This document shows positions 23,011 through 35,907 of a stretch of 64,000 nucleotides of DNA, piece by piece. Below the pieces are notes generated by a model. That model was not told the origin of the DNA and ran no database searches. It saw nothing but the letters and a program-made list of their open reading frames with translations. The stretch spans positions 256,001 to 320,000 of the forward strand of contig CAVRVY010000004.1 in assembly GCA_963724765.1 (NCBI GenBank), written 5' to 3'. Origin of the DNA: an uncultured delta proteobacterium (lineage in GTDB: Bacteria; Desulfobacterota; Binatia; Binatales; Binataceae). A program made the position numbers and the translations under genes. Numbering within the stretch: position 1 is the stretch's first letter; every line of letters starts with the position of its first letter.

Positions 23011-24195
23011 ATGACAAACCGGAGACAACTGAGACTTGTCGGACGGCGGCGGGCGGCCCGGCGCACCGGCGAGCGCGAAGTTCATCGCTACGTGCCCAAC
23101 GCGGGGCTTTCGGTGCCGGTCGTCACCATCCTCGACCGCTCGGGTGAGGTGCTCGAAGACGAGCAGCGCGCGGTGGTGCGCTGGGCGGTGCAGAGCGGCC
23201 ATGGCGCCAACATCATCTTCGCCGCCGGCACTACCGGCGAGTGGGACAAGCTGGACAATCCGCGCCGCCAGCAAATCGCCCGCGTGGTGGTCGACGAATG
23301 CCGTCACATCAACGCCGCCGGCGTCGCGGTCGAGGCCTGGGTCGGCATCACCGGGCATACGCGCGCGGAGACGCTGGAGAACCTCGAGTATGCGTTGGAG
23401 TTGAACGCCGAGGCGGCAGTGGTCGCGCCGCTTTCGATTCGCGACTCGGAAGATCCAGTCGGCTTCGTCAACCGCGAGATCAACGCGCTGTTCGAACGCT
23501 CAAAGCGATGGATTCCGGTCTTCCTCTACGACAACGCCGAGATTTCCGCGCCCGGCCACGCGCCGCACATGCATACGCGCGACGTCAAACAGATGAGCCG
23601 GATGGATTACGTGCGCGGGATCAAGGTCACGGCCGGTAAGGCGGTGCTCGGCAATTACACGCGCGCCGCATCACACTTCAACCGCGGCGGCGATTTTGCG
23701 ATTTACGCCGGCGACCCATATCTCATTTTCGATCTGTTCGCGCCGCCCAAGGGCGCGGGCGGATGGACCCGGCACTACTGGAACCGCTACTGGACGCGCG
23801 ATTCGCTGCCCTACGGAATCGTGGCCGGGCCGAGCAACGCGATGCCGCGCGAGTGGCAACGGGCGTTGCGCGTGTGCCGCAACGGCGATTCCGCCCTGAT
23901 GCATCGCTACGCCCAGGTGCTCGAGGAGTTCCGCGCCGCGTGCGAGTTCAATCGTGGGGGCCGCGGCTTCCGTCCCACGCTTGCCTGCCTCAAAGCGGCC
24001 TTGGTCGAGATGGGCGTATGCCGCAGCGAAGCGCTCGCGCCCGGAACGCCTGCGTTCAGCGACGGCGAGCGGCGCGAGTTCGCGCGCCGCTTCAAGGACC
24101 TGCGCCGGCGCGCGGCGGCCACGCTGGAGCCCGGATGGCTCAGCGAGGCCGACGCGGAGCGTCCGCAGGCGAGGCGCGCACTCAAGGATGGCTGA
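23011..24195 (+). CDS. DHDPS/N-acetylneuraminate lyase family class I aldolase
   Basis: GTTGE, FLYDN Tyr, GIKVT Schiff-base Lys. Confidence 0.8.
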   Translation: MTNRRQLRLVGRRRAARRTGEREVHRYVPNAGLSVPVVTILDRSGEVLEDEQRAVVRWAVQSGHGANIIFAAGTTGEWDKLDNPRRQQIARVVVDECRHINAAGVAVEAWVGITGHTRAETLENLEYALELNAEAAVVAPLSIRDSEDPVGFVNREINALFERSKRWIPVFLYDNAEISAPGHAPHMHTRDVKQMSRMDYVRGIKVTAGKAVLGNYTRAASHFNRGGDFAIYAGDPYLIFDLFAPPKGAGGWTRHYWNRYWTRDSLPYGIVAGPSNAMPREWQRALRVCRNGDSALMHRYAQVLEEFRAACEFNRGGRGFRPTLACLKAALVEMGVCRSEALAPGTPAFSDGERREFARRFKDLRRRAAATLEPGWLSEADAERPQARRALKDG

Positions 24196-25861
24196 GCCAA
24201 AACTCGACGTCGCCGGCTGCGGCAGCATGGTGGTGGACTTGTTCTACCGCACGCCGAAGTTCGTCCACGCCGAGCAGAAAGTCGCGCTCGATGCCCATCA
24301 CGGCGATGGCCGCATGGAACGCGCGGCGGTCGGCGGCCTGGTACTCAACCATCTCGGATGGGCGCGCGTGCTGGGGCTCGAAGCCGGCGTGTTCGGCAAA
24401 ATCGGCGCCGATCGCCACGGCGAGTTCCTGCGCCGCGGGATGGACCAGCTCGGGATTCGGCATCATCTGACCACCGACGGCTCGGCCAGCTCATTCGCCA
24501 AGGTCTTCGTCGACGGGCGCGGCGGGCGCGCCATCTATATGGCGCGCGGAGCCACCGCCGAGCTTGCGCCCGATGAAATTCGCCGCCGCCACGCCGGCTT
24601 TATCCGGCACGCCCGGATGATCTCTACCGAAATTTCGCAGCTCCCGCTGCGCACCGTAATCGCGCTGCTGCTATTCGCGCGCGCCAATTCCATCCCGACC
24701 GTGCTCGACGTCGATCTGCCGCCCGCCGACGCCTGTCCCGCGCTTGGAACCCGCGCCGAACTGGACCGCGCGCTTCGCCTGGCGACGATTCTCAAACCGA
24801 CCCGTCTCACGGCACGCGCGCTCGTGGGCGCGGGGCGCGGCGACACATTGAAGCTCGCGCAGGCGATGCGCGCGCGCTACCAGAGCCAGGCGGTGGTCGT
24901 CACCGACGGCGAGCGCGGATGCGCGATCGCGGCGGCGGGGACCGCGCTCAAGCTGCCGGCGTTCGCGGTCAAAGCGGTGGACACGACCGGCGCCGGCGAT
25001 GCGTTCCTGGGCGCGATGCTCGCGGGGCTGCGATGGGGCTGGCCGTGGCGCGCGATCGGGACGCTCGCCAATGCGGCCGGCGCGGTATGCGTGGGGCGGC
25101 TGGGCGCGTTTCCGGCCGGCTTCGAGGTGCGCGACGAAGTGCTCGCGTTGTTCCGCGACGCGATGCCCGATCAGGCGCTGCCGGAGATCGAAACACCGCC
25201 GCAGGCCGGCGGACCGCTCGATCCCTCGGTCGAGGTCAACCGTTTCCTGGAATTGTGCCTGAGCGAGCTTGGGACGCTGCGGCGCGAGATCGACCTCAAC
25301 CACATTCGCGCCGCGGTCGACATGATCCGCATCGCCGAAGCCCACGGCGGCCGCGTCCATCTTACCGGCGTCGGCAAGCCCGAACACGTCGCCCGTTATG
25401 CGGCGAGCCTGCTCTGTTCCGTGGGGACACAAGCGACCTTCCTCCATGCGACCGAAACGCTGCATGGCAGTCTCGGCCAAGTCGATCCCAAGGATATAGT
25501 GATCGCGATCTCCAACAGCGGCAATACGCGTGAGTTGTGCGAAGCCACCGTGGCGATCAAGGAGCACGGCGCGCAGTTAATCGCGGTCACCGGCAACCCG
25601 GCCTCCGAACTCTCGCACCTGGCCGACCTCGTGATTAACGCTCCGGTCGAGCAAGAGGGCGGCGTGCTCGGCCTCGCGCCACGCATCAGCGTGCTCGCCG
25701 AGGTATGCGTACTCGCCGCGCTGTCGGTCGCGCTGGAAGCGGCGCGCGGGCTGACCCTGGAGCAGTACGGCCGATGGCATCGCGCGGGCACGCTCGGCGC
25801 AGCGGCGCGCCGCCTGGTCTCGGGACGCCAGGCCCGGCGCAAACTCAAAGCGGTAAAATAA
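24188..25861 (+). CDS. PfkB sugar kinase fused to a KdsD/GutQ-like SIS isomerase domain
   Basis: DTTGAGDAF (PfkB); TGVGKPEHVA...FLHATETLHGSLG, ISNSGNT.E, H.AG.LG (SIS); overlaps aldolase stop. Confidence 0.85.
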   Translation: MAEPKLDVAGCGSMVVDLFYRTPKFVHAEQKVALDAHHGDGRMERAAVGGLVLNHLGWARVLGLEAGVFGKIGADRHGEFLRRGMDQLGIRHHLTTDGSASSFAKVFVDGRGGRAIYMARGATAELAPDEIRRRHAGFIRHARMISTEISQLPLRTVIALLLFARANSIPTVLDVDLPPADACPALGTRAELDRALRLATILKPTRLTARALVGAGRGDTLKLAQAMRARYQSQAVVVTDGERGCAIAAAGTALKLPAFAVKAVDTTGAGDAFLGAMLAGLRWGWPWRAIGTLANAAGAVCVGRLGAFPAGFEVRDEVLALFRDAMPDQALPEIETPPQAGGPLDPSVEVNRFLELCLSELGTLRREIDLNHIRAAVDMIRIAEAHGGRVHLTGVGKPEHVARYAASLLCSVGTQATFLHATETLHGSLGQVDPKDIVIAISNSGNTRELCEATVAIKEHGAQLIAVTGNPASELSHLADLVINAPVEQEGGVLGLAPRISVLAEVCVLAALSVALEAARGLTLEQYGRWHRAGTLGAAARRLVSGRQARRKLKAVK

Positions 25862-28435: not shown

Positions 28436-29764
28436 ATGAACGACGCGATTGACCAGCGCGAGCTTACCTTCATGGCCCTGGCCGGCCTCATCGGCGGCGC
28501 GCTCGGATGGCTTCCGGTCGAGCTGGTCAGCCACGGACACACGATCACGCAGGTCGAGAACATCTGGACCCAGCTCGCGGGGGTCGCCTCGATGGCGCTG
28601 TTCTGGGGGCTGGTCGGCGGCTTCATCGTCGCGGCGCAGGGCAAAAGCCTGCAATTCACACCGGCAGTCACGCGGCGTTTCCTGGTTGGACTTGTGGTCT
28701 GCTTCCTTATCGGACTGCCCGCGGTTTATTACTCCAACGTCGTCTTCACGATGATCCTCTCGGCCGGCGGATGGGGCGCCAATCAGGCCGGTTCGGAGAT
28801 CTATCTGCGCGTTGCGCGGGTGATCGGATGGGTCCTGATGGGGTTCATCTGCGGCGCCGGCGTAGGCCTGGCGAGCGGCTCGCTCAGGGATCTCGCGGGA
28901 TCGCTGCGCAACATCGTAAAGGGAGCGGTCGGCGGATGGGTGGGCGGCTTCGTCGGCGGCGTGGCCTTCGATATCATCGGGGCTAACGCGAGCGGTCTCT
29001 ACTCGCGGCTGTTTGGGCTGTGCGCGCTCGGATTGGCGGTCGGACTGCTGATCGGGCTGGTGCAGGAGTTGACCAAGAGCGCGTGGCTCAACGTCCAGGC
29101 GGGACGGCTGCGCGGACGCAGCTTCAATATCGATCGTGCGGTGGCGACGCTCGGGCGCGCCGAAGAAAACGTGGTCGGGCTTTTCGGCGATCCCGGCGTG
29201 CAGCCGCGCCATGCGGTGATCGAACGCCACGGCAACAGTTACGTGCTGAAGAATCTCGCCGTGCAGCAGGGCGTGTTCCTCAACGGCAACCGGATCGAAA
29301 CCGCCGAGCTGAACGAGGGCGACCGGATCAGGATTTCCGACTACGAACTGAGCTTTCATCTCAAGCGCGCCAGCGCCGGGCCGCGCCCTGCCGTCGTGCG
29401 CCAAAACGGTCAAAACGGCCGAGACGGCGCGCCGGCCTCCGTGTCCGCCGGGCCCGCGATGGCGCCGCACGTCGGACGGATGGCGACGCCGTGCCTGGTC
29501 GGCGCCAACGGACGCCGCTACGAACTGCGTCCGGGAGCGCCAACGACGTTGGGCCGCGCGATCGACAACGACATCGTTATCTCCGACGCTTCGGTCTCGC
29601 GCCGCCACGCGACTATCGTGCCGCAGGACGGCGGTTTCGCGCTGCGCGACCTGGCCAGCCAGAACGGCACTTTCATCCGCGGCCAACGGATCGACGGCGC
29701 ACGTCAGCTCGCCAACGGCGACGACGTGCGGTTGGGCGACGCGCCGTTTGTGTTCCATGGCTGA
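28436..29764 (+). CDS. Multi-pass membrane protein with two C-terminal FHA domains
   Basis: About 6-7 Gly-rich TM segments; FHA1 LGR...QPRH...GVFLNG; FHA2 LGR...SRRH...DLAS.NGT. Confidence 0.85.
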   Translation: MNDAIDQRELTFMALAGLIGGALGWLPVELVSHGHTITQVENIWTQLAGVASMALFWGLVGGFIVAAQGKSLQFTPAVTRRFLVGLVVCFLIGLPAVYYSNVVFTMILSAGGWGANQAGSEIYLRVARVIGWVLMGFICGAGVGLASGSLRDLAGSLRNIVKGAVGGWVGGFVGGVAFDIIGANASGLYSRLFGLCALGLAVGLLIGLVQELTKSAWLNVQAGRLRGRSFNIDRAVATLGRAEENVVGLFGDPGVQPRHAVIERHGNSYVLKNLAVQQGVFLNGNRIETAELNEGDRIRISDYELSFHLKRASAGPRPAVVRQNGQNGRDGAPASVSAGPAMAPHVGRMATPCLVGANGRRYELRPGAPTTLGRAIDNDIVISDASVSRRHATIVPQDGGFALRDLASQNGTFIRGQRIDGARQLANGDDVRLGDAPFVFHG

Positions 29765-30179
29765 AACCGGCATGGCTGAAATGGTCAGAACCGAAACGGG
29801 CAGGAATGAAACCGCAACGACACGGGCGCGGTTCTGTTCGCAATGCGGCCAGCCGGTAGTAGTGGCCGAAGCGGTGTACTGCAAGCAGTGCGGCGCGCGA
29901 CTGGGTGGCGGGGAATGGCTCGGCGATCTGAGGTCACCTGCATTGATCGCGGTCGTGCTAAGCCTGGTGCCGGGGCTCGGCCATTTTTATGCCGGGCGCG
30001 CGGGGCGCGCGATCGGATGGTTCTTCGGGACACTTTGGGCTTACGATATTTCACCGTCGCTAGGCGTGCTGATTCACTTGGTATGCGCAGTGTCGGCGGC
30101 GCGCGCCGCCGCGCTTGATGCTGAGCGGCGCGGGACTCGCGCCTCCGGGGCGTTGACGGCAGGGCCGCCACCGCAGTAA
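29757..30179 (+). CDS. Zinc-ribbon membrane protein (TM2-like)
   Basis: CSQCG..CKQCG; SLVPGLGHFY.G; overlaps the FHA gene stop. Confidence 0.7.
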   Translation: MAETGMAEMVRTETGRNETATTRARFCSQCGQPVVVAEAVYCKQCGARLGGGEWLGDLRSPALIAVVLSLVPGLGHFYAGRAGRAIGWFFGTLWAYDISPSLGVLIHLVCAVSAARAAALDAERRGTRASGALTAGPPPQ

Positions 30180-30197: not shown

Positions 30198-31862
30198 ATG
30201 ATTGCGCCAAACACCATAGTCGGCGGCCGTTACCGCGTCGTGAAGCCGCTCGGCGGCGGCGGGATGAAGCTGGTCTACCTGGCCGAGGACCTGCGGCTGG
30301 CGGCGCGCCGGTGCGCGCTGGCCGAGGTGGTCGATAATTTCACCAACCCCGACGCGCAGCGTCAGGCGGTCGACGCCTTCCAGCGCGAGGCCGACATGCT
30401 GGCGCGGCTTAACAACGAGCATATCCCCCGCGTCTTCGACCGCTTCAGCGAACAAAACCATCACTACCTGGTGATGGAATATATCGACGGTGCGACGCTC
30501 GAGGAGGAGACGAAGCTGGCGGGGGGCCGGCTGGCTCAGGCGCGCGTCATCGACATCGCGCTGCAAATCCTCGATACGCTCGAGTACCTGCACGGGCTCG
30601 AGCCGCCGGTCATCTATCGTGACCTCAAACCGTCCAACGTCATGATGATGGCCAATGGACAGGCCAAGCTCATCGACTTCGGTATCGCGCGCCATTTCCA
30701 GCCGCAGCAGAACGCGACCATGATCGGCACGCAGGGGTATGCGCCGCCCGAGCAATATCGCGGCAAGGTCGAACTGCGCTCGGACCTCTACGCGCTCGGC
30801 GCGACGATGCATCATGCGCTCAGCGGCCGCGACCCGGCCAACGAAGCGCCGTTCAGCTTTCCACCGCTCGCCACGTCATGTCCCGGCGCCGAACCAGCGC
30901 TGGCAGCGCTGGTCGACGACGCGCTCGCCTACGACGTCGAGCATCGCGTGCAAAGCGCGGCGGAATTCAAGCGCCGGCTGCAAGATATACGCGACGGCAC
31001 TCGCGCCGGCGTCGCTCCCACCGATGCGACAGCGCCATCAGTGACACTGGAACACGCAAACGGCGGAGAACATACACTCGCGACGGGAGCATCGCAGTCA
31101 ACCGCGCCGTCGCAGACGGCCACCGGCTCGCGCTCGCAGCTTCGGCTGCCGCTCGGAAGCGCCAGCGCGCCACGTCCCGCATCGCCGTCCGCGCCAACGG
31201 TGTTGCGTACGGCATCGGAGATCGATTGTACGAAATGCGGCCGGGCGATTCCCTCCGATTCGCGCTTCTGTTCCTTTTGCGGCGCGGAGGTGAGTGACGC
31301 GCACGCCGCGGCCGGCGTCGCATCCAATCACGAGGCCGAGACCGTGCTCCTTTCGGTGCCGCCCTCGGCCCAAGAGCGGCCGCGCGTGACGCCCCGCGGC
31401 GCGCGACTTTACCATCGGACGCGCAGCGCGCGCCGTCCCCTGCTGATCCTGGTGTTGATCTTCGTGAGCGCATTCGCGACGGTCAGAGCGGTCTCATGCC
31501 TGCAAATGAGCGACAATTCGGACGGCAACCCGCCCGACGCAACGCGCGCCGACGCACCAATACCCGCGATGCCCGCGCCTGACGCCTCGGCGCCCGGCAC
31601 AGAGCCCGAACCTTTTCCGCCTGACTCTCCGTCCTCGGCTCCGGAGTTTCGCGCCGCGCGGCTGGATGCCTTTCGGGCAGCGCTTGACGCCGGCGGATTA
31701 ACCGGCGTGCACTTCCGGATGGTGGGCGACACGATGGTGTTGACCGGGACGGTGCCGACCACGACCGACGAAGCGATGGTGCAAATGCTGGCGTTGAACG
31801 TCGCAGGCGTCGCTTCGCTCAAAGATCATATCCGCGTGCAGGACGGCTCCGCCGGCCCATAG
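30198..31862 (+). CDS. Hanks-type Ser/Thr kinase (atypical lysine position) - zinc ribbon - TM - BON-like domain
   Basis: FQREA alphaC Glu, YRDLKPSN, DFG, GT.GYAPPE; CTKCG..CSFCG; TM LLILVLIFV; C-terminal V.L.G.V...V.GV....D.I.V. Confidence 0.9.
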   Translation: MIAPNTIVGGRYRVVKPLGGGGMKLVYLAEDLRLAARRCALAEVVDNFTNPDAQRQAVDAFQREADMLARLNNEHIPRVFDRFSEQNHHYLVMEYIDGATLEEETKLAGGRLAQARVIDIALQILDTLEYLHGLEPPVIYRDLKPSNVMMMANGQAKLIDFGIARHFQPQQNATMIGTQGYAPPEQYRGKVELRSDLYALGATMHHALSGRDPANEAPFSFPPLATSCPGAEPALAALVDDALAYDVEHRVQSAAEFKRRLQDIRDGTRAGVAPTDATAPSVTLEHANGGEHTLATGASQSTAPSQTATGSRSQLRLPLGSASAPRPASPSAPTVLRTASEIDCTKCGRAIPSDSRFCSFCGAEVSDAHAAAGVASNHEAETVLLSVPPSAQERPRVTPRGARLYHRTRSARRPLLILVLIFVSAFATVRAVSCLQMSDNSDGNPPDATRADAPIPAMPAPDASAPGTEPEPFPPDSPSSAPEFRAARLDAFRAALDAGGLTGVHFRMVGDTMVLTGTVPTTTDEAMVQMLALNVAGVASLKDHIRVQDGSAGP

Positions 31863-31961: not shown

Positions 31962-32636
31962 ATGCTCATCGACCTGCACGTCCATACGCTGCTCTCCTCG
32001 GATTCCAACATCGCACCCGAGCAATACGTCGAGGCCGCCGCGCGCGGCCCGCGCCGCCTCGACGCCATCTGCTTCACCGAGCATCGCCTGTTCCCCGCCG
32101 ATCCGGAGCTCGACCGGCGCTATGCCGAGCTGACGCAGCAGTTCGGTGTGATGGTATTCAAAGGAATCGAGGCCGACACCAACCTGGGCCATCTGCTGCT
32201 GTTCGGAGTGACGCGCGAAGTGATTCGCCGCTTCGATCTGAGTTCGCGGATGCTCAAAAGCGACACGCTGATCGAAGTCATCCACGGCGAGGGCGGAATC
32301 GCGATCCCGGCGCATCCGTTTCGCGATTCGGGCTTCGGTCCGCAGCTCGACGATCTGCTCGCGCGCCACGGCGCCGCGCTCGGCGTAATCGAGGCGCTCA
32401 ACGGACAGAACTCGCCGCGCGAGAACGACGCCGCGCTGGTCGCGATGGAGAAGCTCGGGCTGGTCGGCGTCGGCGGCAGCGACGCGCATTTCGTAACCCC
32501 GAAATGGTTCCTCAGCTGCGCGACCGAGCTGGAGCGGACAGTGAGCGATATCGAGGGACTCTGTGCCGAACTGCGCGCCGGCCGCGCCCGCCCCTTCCGC
32601 TTTGAGGACGAGACAACTCCGTCAGCGAACGAATAG
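31962..32636 (+). CDS. PHP-family phosphoesterase
   Basis: IDLHVHT, TEH, GIE....GH, AHPFR, GGSDAH. Confidence 0.85.
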   Translation: MLIDLHVHTLLSSDSNIAPEQYVEAAARGPRRLDAICFTEHRLFPADPELDRRYAELTQQFGVMVFKGIEADTNLGHLLLFGVTREVIRRFDLSSRMLKSDTLIEVIHGEGGIAIPAHPFRDSGFGPQLDDLLARHGAALGVIEALNGQNSPRENDAALVAMEKLGLVGVGGSDAHFVTPKWFLSCATELERTVSDIEGLCAELRAGRARPFRFEDETTPSANE

Positions 32637-32713: not shown

Positions 32714-33799
32714 CTAGCTACGCCACGGCTCGACCAGGATTTTCGCGTGCCGCTCGGGTGACGCTAAATCCTCGAAGGCCTGCGCGACGCCTTCGACTCC
32801 GACCTTGCCGGTCACCAGCGGGTCGCCATTGACCTTGCCCTCGCACAGGTTGCGCAGCGTGGCGGCGAACTCCTGGCCGGTATAGCCGAGTACGAACTGC
32901 AGATTGAGTTCCTTGTTGATGCCGAACAGTGGCTCGATATGATCGCGCTCCATGCAGACGCCGACCACGACCATCCGCGCGTGGGCCGGGGCCGCGGCCA
33001 TTATCGACTCGATCACGCCCGGCACTCCGACACACTCGAAAATCACCGCGGGCCGCAGCGCCGGCCCGGGCATCCACGGCGGCAGTTGCGGCGCGCGAGC
33101 GGGGTCTTTGTAAGCGGCAAGCTCGCGCCAGCTCTCGTAGGGCGACTTCTCCTTGGGATCGATCACGACGTCGGCGCCCATCTGCAGCGCGAGAGCGCGG
33201 CGGCGGGGCGAGAAATCCGCTGCGACGATCGGATGCACCCCCTTGAGCTTGAGCGCCGCGATAACCGCCAGGCCTACCGGGCCGCATCCGATCACCAGCG
33301 GCGCGTCGTCCTGCTCCATCCGCGCCTTGGCCACCGCATGATAACCGACCGCGAGCGGCTCGGTCAGCGCAGCGCGCTCGGTCGGAAGTCCGTTGGGCAC
33401 TTCGAGCAGCAGCTTCTCGGTCAGCCGCATGTATTCGCCGTAGCCGCCGGGATGGTCGTTCGAGTAGCCGACCGTCTCGACACCGGTGGCGCGAATCAGC
33501 ACGGGCATCGCACACACTCGCGCGCCAGGCTTAAAGCGGCGCTGGGTTTGAGGTCCGTAGTCGACGACCTCGGCGCAGAACTCGTGGCCCATCACGATGT
33601 CGCGTTTGAGATCCATGATGAACGGGCCGCCAGAGCGCCGCGCCCCTTCGACCAGTTTCTCGGCGTGCTTGAGCGCATGCAGATCGGAGCCGCAGATTCC
33701 GCAGGCGAGCGTCTTGACCAGCGCCTCGCCGGGGCCCGGCGCGGGCGTGGCAATATCGTCGACCACGAGCTTCTTGTTACGCATCACGGCAGCGCGCAT
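32714..33799 (-). CDS. Zinc-binding medium-chain dehydrogenase
   Basis: CGICGSDLH, GHEF, EPLAV, GCGPVG; lacks the structural-Zn Cys loop. Confidence 0.9.
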   Translation of the reverse strand: MRAAVMRNKKLVVDDIATPAPGPGEALVKTLACGICGSDLHALKHAEKLVEGARRSGGPFIMDLKRDIVMGHEFCAEVVDYGPQTQRRFKPGARVCAMPVLIRATGVETVGYSNDHPGGYGEYMRLTEKLLLEVPNGLPTERAALTEPLAVGYHAVAKARMEQDDAPLVIGCGPVGLAVIAALKLKGVHPIVAADFSPRRRALALQMGADVVIDPKEKSPYESWRELAAYKDPARAPQLPPWMPGPALRPAVIFECVGVPGVIESIMAAAPAHARMVVVGVCMERDHIEPLFGINKELNLQFVLGYTGQEFAATLRNLCEGKVNGDPLVTGKVGVEGVAQAFEDLASPERHAKILVEPWRS

Positions 33800-33882: not shown

Positions 33883-35907
33883 CTACAATTGCTCCAGCTC
33901 GCGCACGAAGCGGCGTAAATCGGACGGACGGCCGGCGGCCATAATGGTGTCGCCGGGATTGAGCTTGCGCTCGGGCGTAATCGGCACGAACCCGTCTTCG
34001 CTCGCGCCGGCTTTTTGCACCGCGAGCACGCTCACGCCGAAGCGCGTGCGCGGCGCAAGCTCGACCATCGTCTTACCTTGCGCGGTTGGCGGCACGATGA
34101 TGCGCATCAGACGATAGCCGGTCGCCCAGAAGATACTGGTGCCGGTGTTGGCGAGCGTCGAAAGCGACACCGCCATCCGGTTCAGCACCTGGCCAATCTC
34201 CTTGCGCGCGATAAGGCCGGCCAGGTGCCGGCCGCGCTGGCCGGCGGTGCTATCAACCACCGGCAATTCCTCGAGGTCCTCGGACTCCATCAGTTGCGCG
34301 GCCTCGTCGAGATTGGAATCGCCGCTCACCACCGGGCAATTGCGCCGGCAGATGTCGTAGGCGTTGACCAAGCCCACCACGTCGGCCTGGCTGCTCAGCA
34401 TCGCGACCAGGTCGCGCGTCACGATAAGGCCGGCCAGTCCGCCAGCGTCGTCGACCACCGGCAGCGTCGCCTGCGCGGTGTCGCCCGCCGCGCGCAAAAC
34501 TTCCGCGAGCGGGGCCTTGGATTGCACGACCGCCGGGTCGTGCGTCATCACGCTCTCGACCGGAATCTGCGTCAGCACCAGCCGTTCGCGGCCAATCTCG
34601 AGCGTCTTGCCTTCGCGCGCCAGACGATAGGTGTCGATCGACTCATGCTCGAGCGAGCGCGAAACTACCAACGCCGTCACCACCGCGATCATCGCCGGCA
34701 GCGCGACCTGGTAATTCTGGGTCATATCGAGCAGCAAAAAAAGCGCGGTCAACGGCGCGTGCGTCACGCCGCACAGGAAGGTGCTCAATCCGACCAGCGC
34801 GTACGACCCGCGCGGTCCGGTCAGCTTCGGCACTATCGAGGCCATCGCGCGCTGAAACGTCGCCCCCGCCATCGTGCCGATGAAAAACGTCGGGCCGAAG
34901 ACGCCGCCAGGCGCGCCGCACCCGAGCGACACGCTGGAGGTGAAGAACTTGGCCGCGGTCAGCGCGAACGTGATCCCGATGGCGAAGCGGCCCTCCATCG
35001 CGCGGTTGATCATCGGATAGCCGTCGGAGAGGTTCTGCGGCAATGGAATCGCGACCAGGCCGACGACCAGCAGGCCCAACGCCAGACGGGCCCACTGCGG
35101 CCCTTTCATCCTGCGGAAAGCCGCTGCGGTGGCATGGAAGAAATGGATGTAGCCAGCGCTGAGCGCGCCCAGCAGAGCACCCATCAAGGTGTATGACAGC
35201 AGTTCCCAATAACTGCGCATCACAAAGACCGGGGTCTGGAAGACCGCGGCGTCGCCGGTAATCGCACGCGAAAAGACCACTGCGCTCACGGTCGAGACCA
35301 GCAACAGCGTCAGGTTGCTAAGCTCGGTCTCGCCGAGCAGGACGATCTCCTGGGCAAAGAGCACACCACCGACCGGAGCGTTGAAGGTGGTGGCGATCCC
35401 GGCGCCCGCACCGGCGGCGATCAGGACCTTGGCGCGGTCGGCCGGCAAGCGGCGCAATTGCGCGACCGCCGAGCCGATCGCTCCGCCGATTTGCGCGATC
35501 GGCCCCTCGCGTCCGACCGAGGCGCCGCAGCCGAGCGACAACGCCGCGCCCACAGCCTTAAGCACGATCCAGCGCCGCTTGATCCGCGCGCTGCCGAGAT
35601 TCACCATTTCGAGGAAATTCGGAAAGCCGTAGCCGAGCACGTCGCCCGGAAACAGCCAGTTGAGCAGGATCATCCCAACGCCGCCGCTCAGCAGCACCAC
35701 CGGCACCAGCCCAAGCCGCAGGCCGCCGTGCGCGATTCCGAGCGCATCCCATTCCATGCCCAGGAACACCCAAGTGAAGAATTCGATCAGCGCGCGAAAG
35801 CCCAGATTGCCAAGCGCGGCCAGCACGCCGACCACCGCCGCCAGCAGAATCTGCAGCGTGTAGTTGAACTCGTCAGTACGTAACGATAGCGGCCGCAATA
35901 TCCGCAT
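33883..35907 (-). CDS. CLC-family anion channel/transporter with CBS pair and TrkA_C (RCK-C) domain
   Basis: GREGP, FNAP, GGVFGP; CBS LPVVD twice; C-terminal GKT..EL..R..FGV.VLA...L..GD. Confidence 0.9.
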   Translation of the reverse strand: MRILRPLSLRTDEFNYTLQILLAAVVGVLAALGNLGFRALIEFFTWVFLGMEWDALGIAHGGLRLGLVPVVLLSGGVGMILLNWLFPGDVLGYGFPNFLEMVNLGSARIKRRWIVLKAVGAALSLGCGASVGREGPIAQIGGAIGSAVAQLRRLPADRAKVLIAAGAGAGIATTFNAPVGGVLFAQEIVLLGETELSNLTLLLVSTVSAVVFSRAITGDAAVFQTPVFVMRSYWELLSYTLMGALLGALSAGYIHFFHATAAAFRRMKGPQWARLALGLLVVGLVAIPLPQNLSDGYPMINRAMEGRFAIGITFALTAAKFFTSSVSLGCGAPGGVFGPTFFIGTMAGATFQRAMASIVPKLTGPRGSYALVGLSTFLCGVTHAPLTALFLLLDMTQNYQVALPAMIAVVTALVVSRSLEHESIDTYRLAREGKTLEIGRERLVLTQIPVESVMTHDPAVVQSKAPLAEVLRAAGDTAQATLPVVDDAGGLAGLIVTRDLVAMLSSQADVVGLVNAYDICRRNCPVVSGDSNLDEAAQLMESEDLEELPVVDSTAGQRGRHLAGLIARKEIGQVLNRMAVSLSTLANTGTSIFWATGYRLMRIIVPPTAQGKTMVELAPRTRFGVSVLAVQKAGASEDGFVPITPERKLNPGDTIMAAGRPSDLRRFVRELEQL

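Follow-up and report, generated by a model that had tools for sequence, protein, structure and literature searches.

A stretch of 64,000 nucleotides from the genome of an uncultured member of the Binataceae (contig CAVRVY010000004.1; hereafter the window) was found to carry a gene for a receptor-type Ser/Thr protein kinase in which the lysine of strand beta3 is replaced by alanine and a lysine is located in the glycine-rich loop. The product of the open reading frame (ORF) at 30198-31862 (+) is a Hanks-type Ser/Thr protein kinase of the bacterial branch, and the loss of the invariant beta3 lysine is its variant feature. This lysine is one of the three residues by which kinases are sorted from pseudokinases. 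The relocation of the lysine arose once, inside a clade of canonical bacterial kinases, and WNK was not its ancestor. The resulting clade looks like an independent bacterial reinvention of the lysine relocation of the WNK kinases. The reading that best fits the data, and that we consider probable, is that of a receptor-type Hanks kinase which remains catalytically competent and whose lysine has been relocated convergently.

The product of the ORF matched the Pfam family Pkinase (PF00069) with E=1.3e-34 and 120.2 bits, the cut-off being 31.7 bits. The kinase domain was modelled by AlphaFold2, and its quality is given below as the predicted local distance difference test (pLDDT) and the predicted template modelling score (pTM). 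A Foldseek search with this model gave PknB, Stk1 and PknA as the best fold matches in the PDB (E about 1e-19). The features of the kinase part of the gene are as follows.

30198..31862, + strand: receptor-type Ser/Thr kinase gene, 554 amino acids, stop codon included in the coordinates (ORF list and translation)
30198..31007, + strand: kinase domain, residues 1-270 (AlphaFold2 mean pLDDT 94.3, pTM 0.90)
30252..30278, + strand: glycine-rich loop G19-Y27, which reads G19-G-G21-G-M-K24-L-V-Y
30267-30269, + strand: codon of Lys24, at the third glycine position of GxGxxG and at the start of strand beta2 (model strand 24-31)
30321..30323, + strand: codon of Ala42, at the beta3 position normally occupied by the ATP-anchoring lysine (the strand reads C39-A-L-A42-E)
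30387..30389, + strand: Glu64 of helix alphaC (FQRE64A), the expected salt-bridge partner of the catalytic lysine
30615..30638, + strand: catalytic loop Y140-R-D142-L-K144-P-S-N147
30675..30752, + strand: activation segment from D160-F-G to A182-P-P-E185, including the conserved Thr174 and Thr178

In the phmmer alignment to the solved StkP chains, Ala42 is matched to the 'vavk' lysine and Lys24 to the residue just after the methionine of the glycine-rich loop. These placements show that Ala42 occupies the column of the beta3 lysine and Lys24 the third position of GxGxxG. An earlier note on this DNA had assigned the two residues to these positions and codons, and the translation and the StkP alignment confirm the assignment. 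The other motifs that it had described as intact, namely the alphaC glutamate, YRDLKPSN, DFG and APPE, are all present in the translation at the positions that it gave.

Conservation, origin and distribution of the swap

Both Lys24 and Ala42 were found in 119 of the 120 closest homologues, which were 53-100% identical to the kinase and, where named, came mostly from Candidatus Binataceae. The single exception is a fragment without the N-lobe; the N-terminus of the kinase is otherwise kept among the homologues. A further search with a divergent member, P0193, gave 75 new proteins, and the lysine and the alanine were present in 75/75. Lys24 is thus kept among homologues that lack the beta3 lysine, as the claim of a relocated lysine demands. 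Among the orthologues the Lys24 codon occurs both as AAA and as AAG.

A wider set of kinases was obtained with the kinase domain as the query of a HMMER scan through 1.84 billion cluster representatives, in which the best 150 of about 940,000 matches gave 215 domain rows. Residues were counted in rows with at least 200 filled columns, which included 59 rows with the swap (hereafter K/A rows) and 95 canonical rows. Position 24 is lysine in 59/59 K/A rows and in 0/95 canonical rows, a contrast that is circular by itself because the two groups are defined by the trait. The canonical rows have glycine (70), serine (10), alanine (9) or other residues (6) at this position. Position 42 is alanine in 57 K/A rows, serine in one and isoleucine in one, and lysine in all 95 canonical rows.

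The origin of the swap was analyzed with a tree in which the trait columns 24 and 42 were masked. The tree was built from 146 rows, the query and 145 others, each with at least 230 filled columns and with both positions present; the 70 rows left out were fragments, rows missing one of the trait positions and repeat pieces. In the FastTree result, the 59 K/A rows (58 from the database and the query) lie on one side of one branch with an SH-like support (after Shimodaira and Hasegawa) of 99, which requires one change. For a short IQ-TREE search under LG+G4, 11 further rows were dropped, which belonged to six proteins of unusual composition or on long branches. It gave an SH-aLRT support (the approximate likelihood-ratio test of the same type) of 100 for the K/A clade, again with one change. 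The clade nests among canonical bacterial kinases with the same GGM-G…A-V-K-E pattern and with the motifs YRD-x-KP-x-N and APPE. No intermediate with both lysines or with no lysine was seen inside the K/A clade, either among the rows of the best-150 scan or in the tree. Since the K/A clade lies within the canonical bacterial kinases, the swap is one event that took place in a bacterial lineage, convergently with WNK. The convergence proposed in the earlier note is accordingly borne out, the nearest sequences and structures being bacterial ones of the PknB, Stk1 and PknA type.

The distribution of the swap in genomes was examined with a strict DNA pattern for the two-residue motif. The pattern needs Met23, Cys39, Ala40 and the exact spacing, and divergent members can therefore be missed. 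In the phylum sample it was found in 5/401 genomes, all of which belong to the family of the window, the Binataceae. In the class sample it was found in 15/121 genomes, that is, in the window genome and in 14/14 other Binataceae, and in 0/106 genomes of 18 other families. The class counts include the unpublished genome G475, which has three copies, and some genomes with two. A scan of species genomes gave at least 600 stretches, and among the best 80 of these loci only six (L001-L006) were of the K/A type. The K/A clade is thus confined, in the sampled genomes, to the Binataceae and is present in every sampled member of the family. In the homologue search with P0193, two proteins carried labels from outside the family, P0277 from a metagenome-assembled genome (MAG) of Beijerinckiaceae and P0302 from one of Acidoferrales; these labels are unconfirmed and possibly reflect binning errors. 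The DNA runs that hold the sequence are peat and soil metagenomes, and among the matches listed there were no RNA runs.

Some of these genomes hold more than one kinase of this kind. Genome G401 has an orthologue of the kinase (L091, 71% identical) and a second K/A paralogue at L006 3310-6869 (+), whose kinase domain is 59% identical. The paralogue lies directly after two Hsp20/alpha-crystallin genes and has neither an FHA nor a CLC neighbour. The window genome also encodes two canonical Hanks paralogues, which are about 52% identical to the K/A kinase. These two paralogues lie on contig C3 of the window genome (G000), in a cluster of about 20 kb (approximately 1.427-1.446 Mb; L082-L084, L092 and L093) that also holds a third, weaker kinase-like gene and the two PP2C phosphatase genes of the genome. 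This cluster is on a different contig from the K/A kinase.

Probable catalytic competence

Apart from the beta3 lysine, the catalytic residues are retained in nearly all of the 59 K/A rows: E64 in 58, R141 in 57, D142 in 57, K144 in 58, N147 in 58, D160 in 59, G162 in 58 and E185 in 58. The activation-loop threonines are retained in 56 (T174) and 53 (T178). Retention of the catalytic residues is at least equal to that in the 95 canonical rows, and E64 is invariant in alignment A1. The residue at position 42 is small, alanine or serine, in 58/59 K/A rows, as needed to make room. In the AlphaFold2 model Lys24 stands where beta2 begins.

To estimate the constraint on the domain, the window genome was compared with genomes from five other Binataceae genera. 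Identity to the window sequence is 74-80% for the K/A kinase domain; for the two canonical paralogues encoded in those genomes, identity to their counterparts in the window genome is 79-87% and 73-82%. Since the value for the K/A domain is close to those for its canonical paralogues, the constraint appears to be that of a working kinase domain. The kept catalytic residues and the paralogue-like conservation together make an active kinase with a relocated lysine the best reading of the protein. The earlier note had proposed an active kinase rather than a pseudokinase, which is probably correct in view of the catalytic residues kept in 57-59/59 rows, the identity across five genera and the operon shared with a protein that has two FHA domains.

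Most of the exceptions in the counts above come from one row, P0239. This protein has lysine at the position in the glycine-rich loop and isoleucine at beta3; its catalytic loop reads YGGLAPSK, and DMP is found in place of DFG. P0239, which was not long enough to be placed in the trees, probably represents a genuine pseudokinase.

Some facts weigh against the protein being active. The swap is one evolutionary event, and the co-variation of the loop lysine with the loss of the beta3 lysine is therefore unreplicated and rests on conservation afterwards. The degraded catalytic loop and DFG motif of P0239 indicate that loss of activity does occur near the K/A clade. Conservation of the K/A domain (74-80%) falls somewhat short of that of the more strongly conserved of the two paralogues (79-87%). 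Catalytic residues are, moreover, also conserved in some ATP-binding pseudokinases.

These points bear on the main alternative: the protein would be a pseudokinase, phosphotransfer having been lost with the beta3 lysine, that assembles with the FHA protein at the membrane and acts there as a scaffold, either nucleotide-binding or purely structural. Lys24 would be kept for another reason, for example the stability of the loop or contact with a partner or a lipid. By the standard sequence definition, a kinase without the beta3 lysine is a pseudokinase, and several bacterial families lacking it have been catalogued in a 2025 atlas. The two canonical kinases of the genome could phosphorylate the ligands of the FHA partner, and P0239 exemplifies further decay of the catalytic motifs. 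However, D142, K144, N147, D160 and E64 are kept at the level of the canonical relatives, whereas the catalogued bacterial pseudokinase families, as described in the atlas, mostly lose the aspartates of HRD and/or DFG. The compensating lysine is found exactly at the position that rescues catalysis in WNK, according to the WNK literature, and the domain has changed at a pace similar to that of a canonical paralogue. We therefore regard a pseudokinase as unlikely, and the reading as an active kinase with a relocated lysine is followed below.

For such a kinase, the lysine that positions the ATP phosphates would have moved from beta3 (Ala42) to the beginning of beta2 (Lys24). By the precedent of WNK and POMK, Lys24 would extend beneath the loop to make contact with ATP and would pair with the alphaC residue Glu64, as described for WNK. 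If so, a strictly conserved bacterial clade would provide an independent natural replicate of the WNK relocation, pointing to a route in the fitness landscape that can be reached repeatedly. The costs and benefits of the relocation could be studied in it, as a bacterial system that is simple and soluble. Such proteins would then be mislabelled where pseudokinases in bacterial genomes are called from motifs.

Comparison with WNK and other kinases

Position 55 of PKA, which we take to be the third glycine of the glycine-rich loop, serves as the point of reference for the comparison with WNK. In Kannan et al. 2007, the WNK lysine is described as shifted to this position in the loop, and WNK as the only functional family of eukaryotic-type kinases without a beta3 lysine. 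POMK was later added as a functional kinase of this kind, and the lysine relocated to beta2 is reported to support catalysis in both WNK and POMK. The kinase of the window resembles WNK in having a small residue in place of the beta3 lysine and a lysine on beta2 at the third glycine position, the WNK position being taken from Kannan et al. 2007. It also keeps the alphaC glutamate, a catalytic loop of the HRD type and the activation segment, as WNK does. Unlike WNK, it has alanine rather than cysteine at beta3 and DFG rather than DLG, and it spans the membrane once, as a receptor with a periplasmic domain. A further difference from WNK is that it carries the methionine of the glycine-rich loop and the gatekeeper methionine described for bacterial kinases.

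Homology to WNK was considered and rejected. A Pfam scan of the kinase gave matches only to kinase, zinc-ribbon and, weakly, BON families, and none to the accessory domains of WNK. No WNK was found among the best 60 sequence matches in the PDB, which were bacterial kinases, Aurora, CDPK and others, and none among Foldseek ranks 1-50 for the kinase domain. The sequence and fold searches place the kinase with the bacterial PknB-like kinases. By analogy it would be WNK-like in mechanism, and by descent it is no WNK.

The receptor kinases of the PknB/Stk1 type, which gave the best sequence and fold matches, share with the present kinase an N-terminal kinase domain, one transmembrane helix and an extracellular sensor. 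The operon link to an FHA protein and the two PP2C phosphatases in the genome also recall these systems. They have, however, the canonical beta3 lysine and PASTA or other sensors, whereas this clade has Lys24 and Ala42, a zinc ribbon and a BON-like sensor. The match to the NCBIfam family PknB_PASTA_kin was 192 bits, against a cut-off of 450 bits.

Movement of the positive charge from beta3 to beta2 or the glycine-rich loop is also described for POMK (SGK196) and for CAK-chloro. As described there, POMK is a sugar kinase in which the equivalents of DFG and HRD are re-routed, whereas every other catalytic motif is canonical in the present kinase. CAK-chloro, according to the same sources a subfamily of small-molecule kinases, uses arginine and loses the alphaC glutamate, which is kept here as Glu64. 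The bacterial pseudokinase families of the 2025 atlas (ActPs1-3, GLW, CP1, DYD and DLHK) likewise lack the beta3 lysine. In the family descriptions of the atlas, however, they have arginine substitutions and/or have lost the aspartate of HRD or DFG, and they occur in other taxa with other domain partners, whereas only the beta3 lysine is lost here. Judged by these descriptions, the K/A kinase does not fit any of the catalogued families. The accessible descriptions do not mention a compensating lysine in the glycine-rich loop, and the supplementary family tables may differ. In the literature that was searched, no bacterial Hanks kinase with such a relocation of the lysine was found, and the supplements of the atlas may list one.

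Domains beyond the kinase core and the gene neighbourhood

The kinase domain is followed, in this order, by a variable linker, a zinc ribbon, a hydrophobic helix, a proline-rich spacer and a domain of 65 residues.

31227..31292, + strand: cytoplasmic four-cysteine zinc ribbon, residues 344-365 (Pfam Zn_Ribbon_1, E=1.2e-6, above the cut-off)
31440..31502, + strand: single hydrophobic transmembrane segment, about residues 415-435, from the sequence (model helix 412-439)
31638..31838, + strand: extracytoplasmic BON-like domain, residues 481-547, of alpha-beta-beta-alpha-beta topology (model blocks with pLDDT 81-95)

The cysteines of the zinc ribbon are kept in the orthologues. The assignment of the last domain is supported by lines of evidence that are individually weak and point the same way. 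Pfam BON (PF04972) matched it with E=0.0098 and 16.6 bits, below the cut-off of 27 bits and over the second half of the profile only. A Foldseek search of the PDB ranked OsmY first (E=1.2e-3), with DolP and BonA next and no match below 1e-3. A profile search of the PDB also placed OsmY at the top (E=0.0081), with OmpATb at 0.34, and precomputed matches to PF04972 exist in three orthologues. Taken together, these results give moderate support for a BON-like periplasmic domain. The BON-like domain (OsmY family) proposed in the earlier note thus has moderate support. Its small predicted alpha-beta-beta-alpha-beta fold resembles that of OsmY, DolP and BonA at a similarity below curated thresholds; unlike in these proteins, a single BON-like copy is fused to a kinase through a transmembrane helix. 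In a scan of 37 members of the K/A clade, zinc-ribbon families were found in 11, Sel1/TPR families in 4 and FGE-sulfatase in 3. Since the C-terminal modules differ across the clade, the core with the relocated lysine seems to have been reused with several sensor or partner domains.

The genes around the kinase are as follows.

28436..29764, + strand: membrane protein, hydrophobic in its N-terminal half and with two FHA domains in its C-terminal half (Pfam FHA, E=1.1e-34, two stretches)
29748..30179, + strand: small zinc-ribbon protein with a TM2-like membrane segment (Pfam Zn_ribbon_NUD, E=4.5e-6; TM2, E=0.0024), start codon uncertain
31962..32636, + strand: PHP-family metallohydrolase (Pfam PHP and PHP_C; NCBIfam CehA/McbA below the cut-off)
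32714-33799, - strand: zinc-type alcohol dehydrogenase gene, inserted between the PHP and CLC genes in the window
33883-35907, - strand: CLC-family gene that encodes two CBS domains and, at the C-terminus, a TrkA_C domain, about 2 kb downstream of the kinase

FHA domains bind phosphothreonine. The best NCBIfam match of the FHA gene was FhaB/FipA, below the cut-off. The zinc-ribbon gene lies between the FHA and kinase genes and ends 18 nucleotides upstream of the start of the kinase. The order FHA, zinc ribbon, kinase recurs in nine related loci (L001-L005 and L085-L088), and the only sigma-70-like site in the region is located before the FHA gene. The kinase, too, has a zinc ribbon, which adjoins its membrane helix, and the three gene products therefore look like components of a single membrane complex. 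The PHP gene is conserved downstream of the kinase in L002-L005 and may belong to the kinase operon.

From this arrangement a signalling pathway can be proposed. The kinase domain and the zinc ribbon are cytoplasmic and are connected by the one transmembrane helix to the periplasmic BON-like domain, and the kinase gene lies in an operon with those for the two-FHA membrane protein and the small zinc-ribbon membrane protein. A signal from the envelope would be detected at the BON-like domain or close to it, whereupon the kinase would autophosphorylate Thr174 and Thr178 of its activation loop, and the FHA partner would then be recruited or phosphorylated. The FHA membrane protein, the zinc-ribbon protein and the BON-linked kinase would thereby constitute a lineage-specific signalling module in an abundant, uncultured family of soil and peat.

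It has further been considered that the relocation is adaptive rather than neutral in the Binataceae. The region of beta3 and helix alphaC would have been freed for regulation by anions or envelope stress through the BON-like domain, making the kinase a counterpart of WNK in physiology, together with the CLC gene and, in the paralogue, the Hsp20 genes. We consider this very doubtful. A more specific proposal, scarcely more credible and if anything less so, is that the kinase senses chloride or osmolarity as a physiological analogue of WNK and controls the neighbouring CLC transporter. The CLC gene, with its CBS and TrkA_C domains, does lie on the opposite strand nearby and is a neighbour in L002-L005, and the sensor domain resembles OsmY. 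The wider block in L002-L005, however, consists of CoA-transferase, FHA, zinc ribbon, kinase, PHP, CLC and hydrolase genes. Synteny among close relatives extends over all of this block, the CoA-transferase, luciferase-like and hydrolase genes included, and the adjacency of the CLC gene therefore carries no specific signal. The adjacency exists only within the syntenic block, and in the window it is interrupted by the alcohol dehydrogenase gene. The second K/A paralogue in G401 stands beside two Hsp20 genes with no CLC gene within ±5 kb. WNK kinases have the motif DLG, which forms their chloride site, whereas the motif here is DFG; BON domains, moreover, are general modules for the envelope and for lipid binding. 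Coupling to chloride or to the CLC protein has thus found no specific support and is set aside. The osmotic, envelope or chloride sensing that the earlier note had offered as a speculation has gained nothing from the analysis.

The probability that the swap is an artefact, whether of sequencing, assembly or alignment or from decay of the gene, is negligible: nothing was found in its favour, the frame is open and of full length with a confidently predicted fold, the Lys24 codon varies synonymously, and the recurrence of both residues across the sampled genomes and in hundreds of independently assembled sequences rules it out.

Two further observations were made in the course of the analysis. 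P0136, a protein of 1069 amino acids from the best-150 scan, matches only the piece from the catalytic loop to DFG, in 15 tandem copies that each contain HRDIKPGN and DFG; it is an odd repeat protein made from a kinase fragment. Elsewhere in the window, the ORF at 23954-25861 (+) encodes a PfkB carbohydrate-kinase domain joined to a SIS sugar-isomerase domain.

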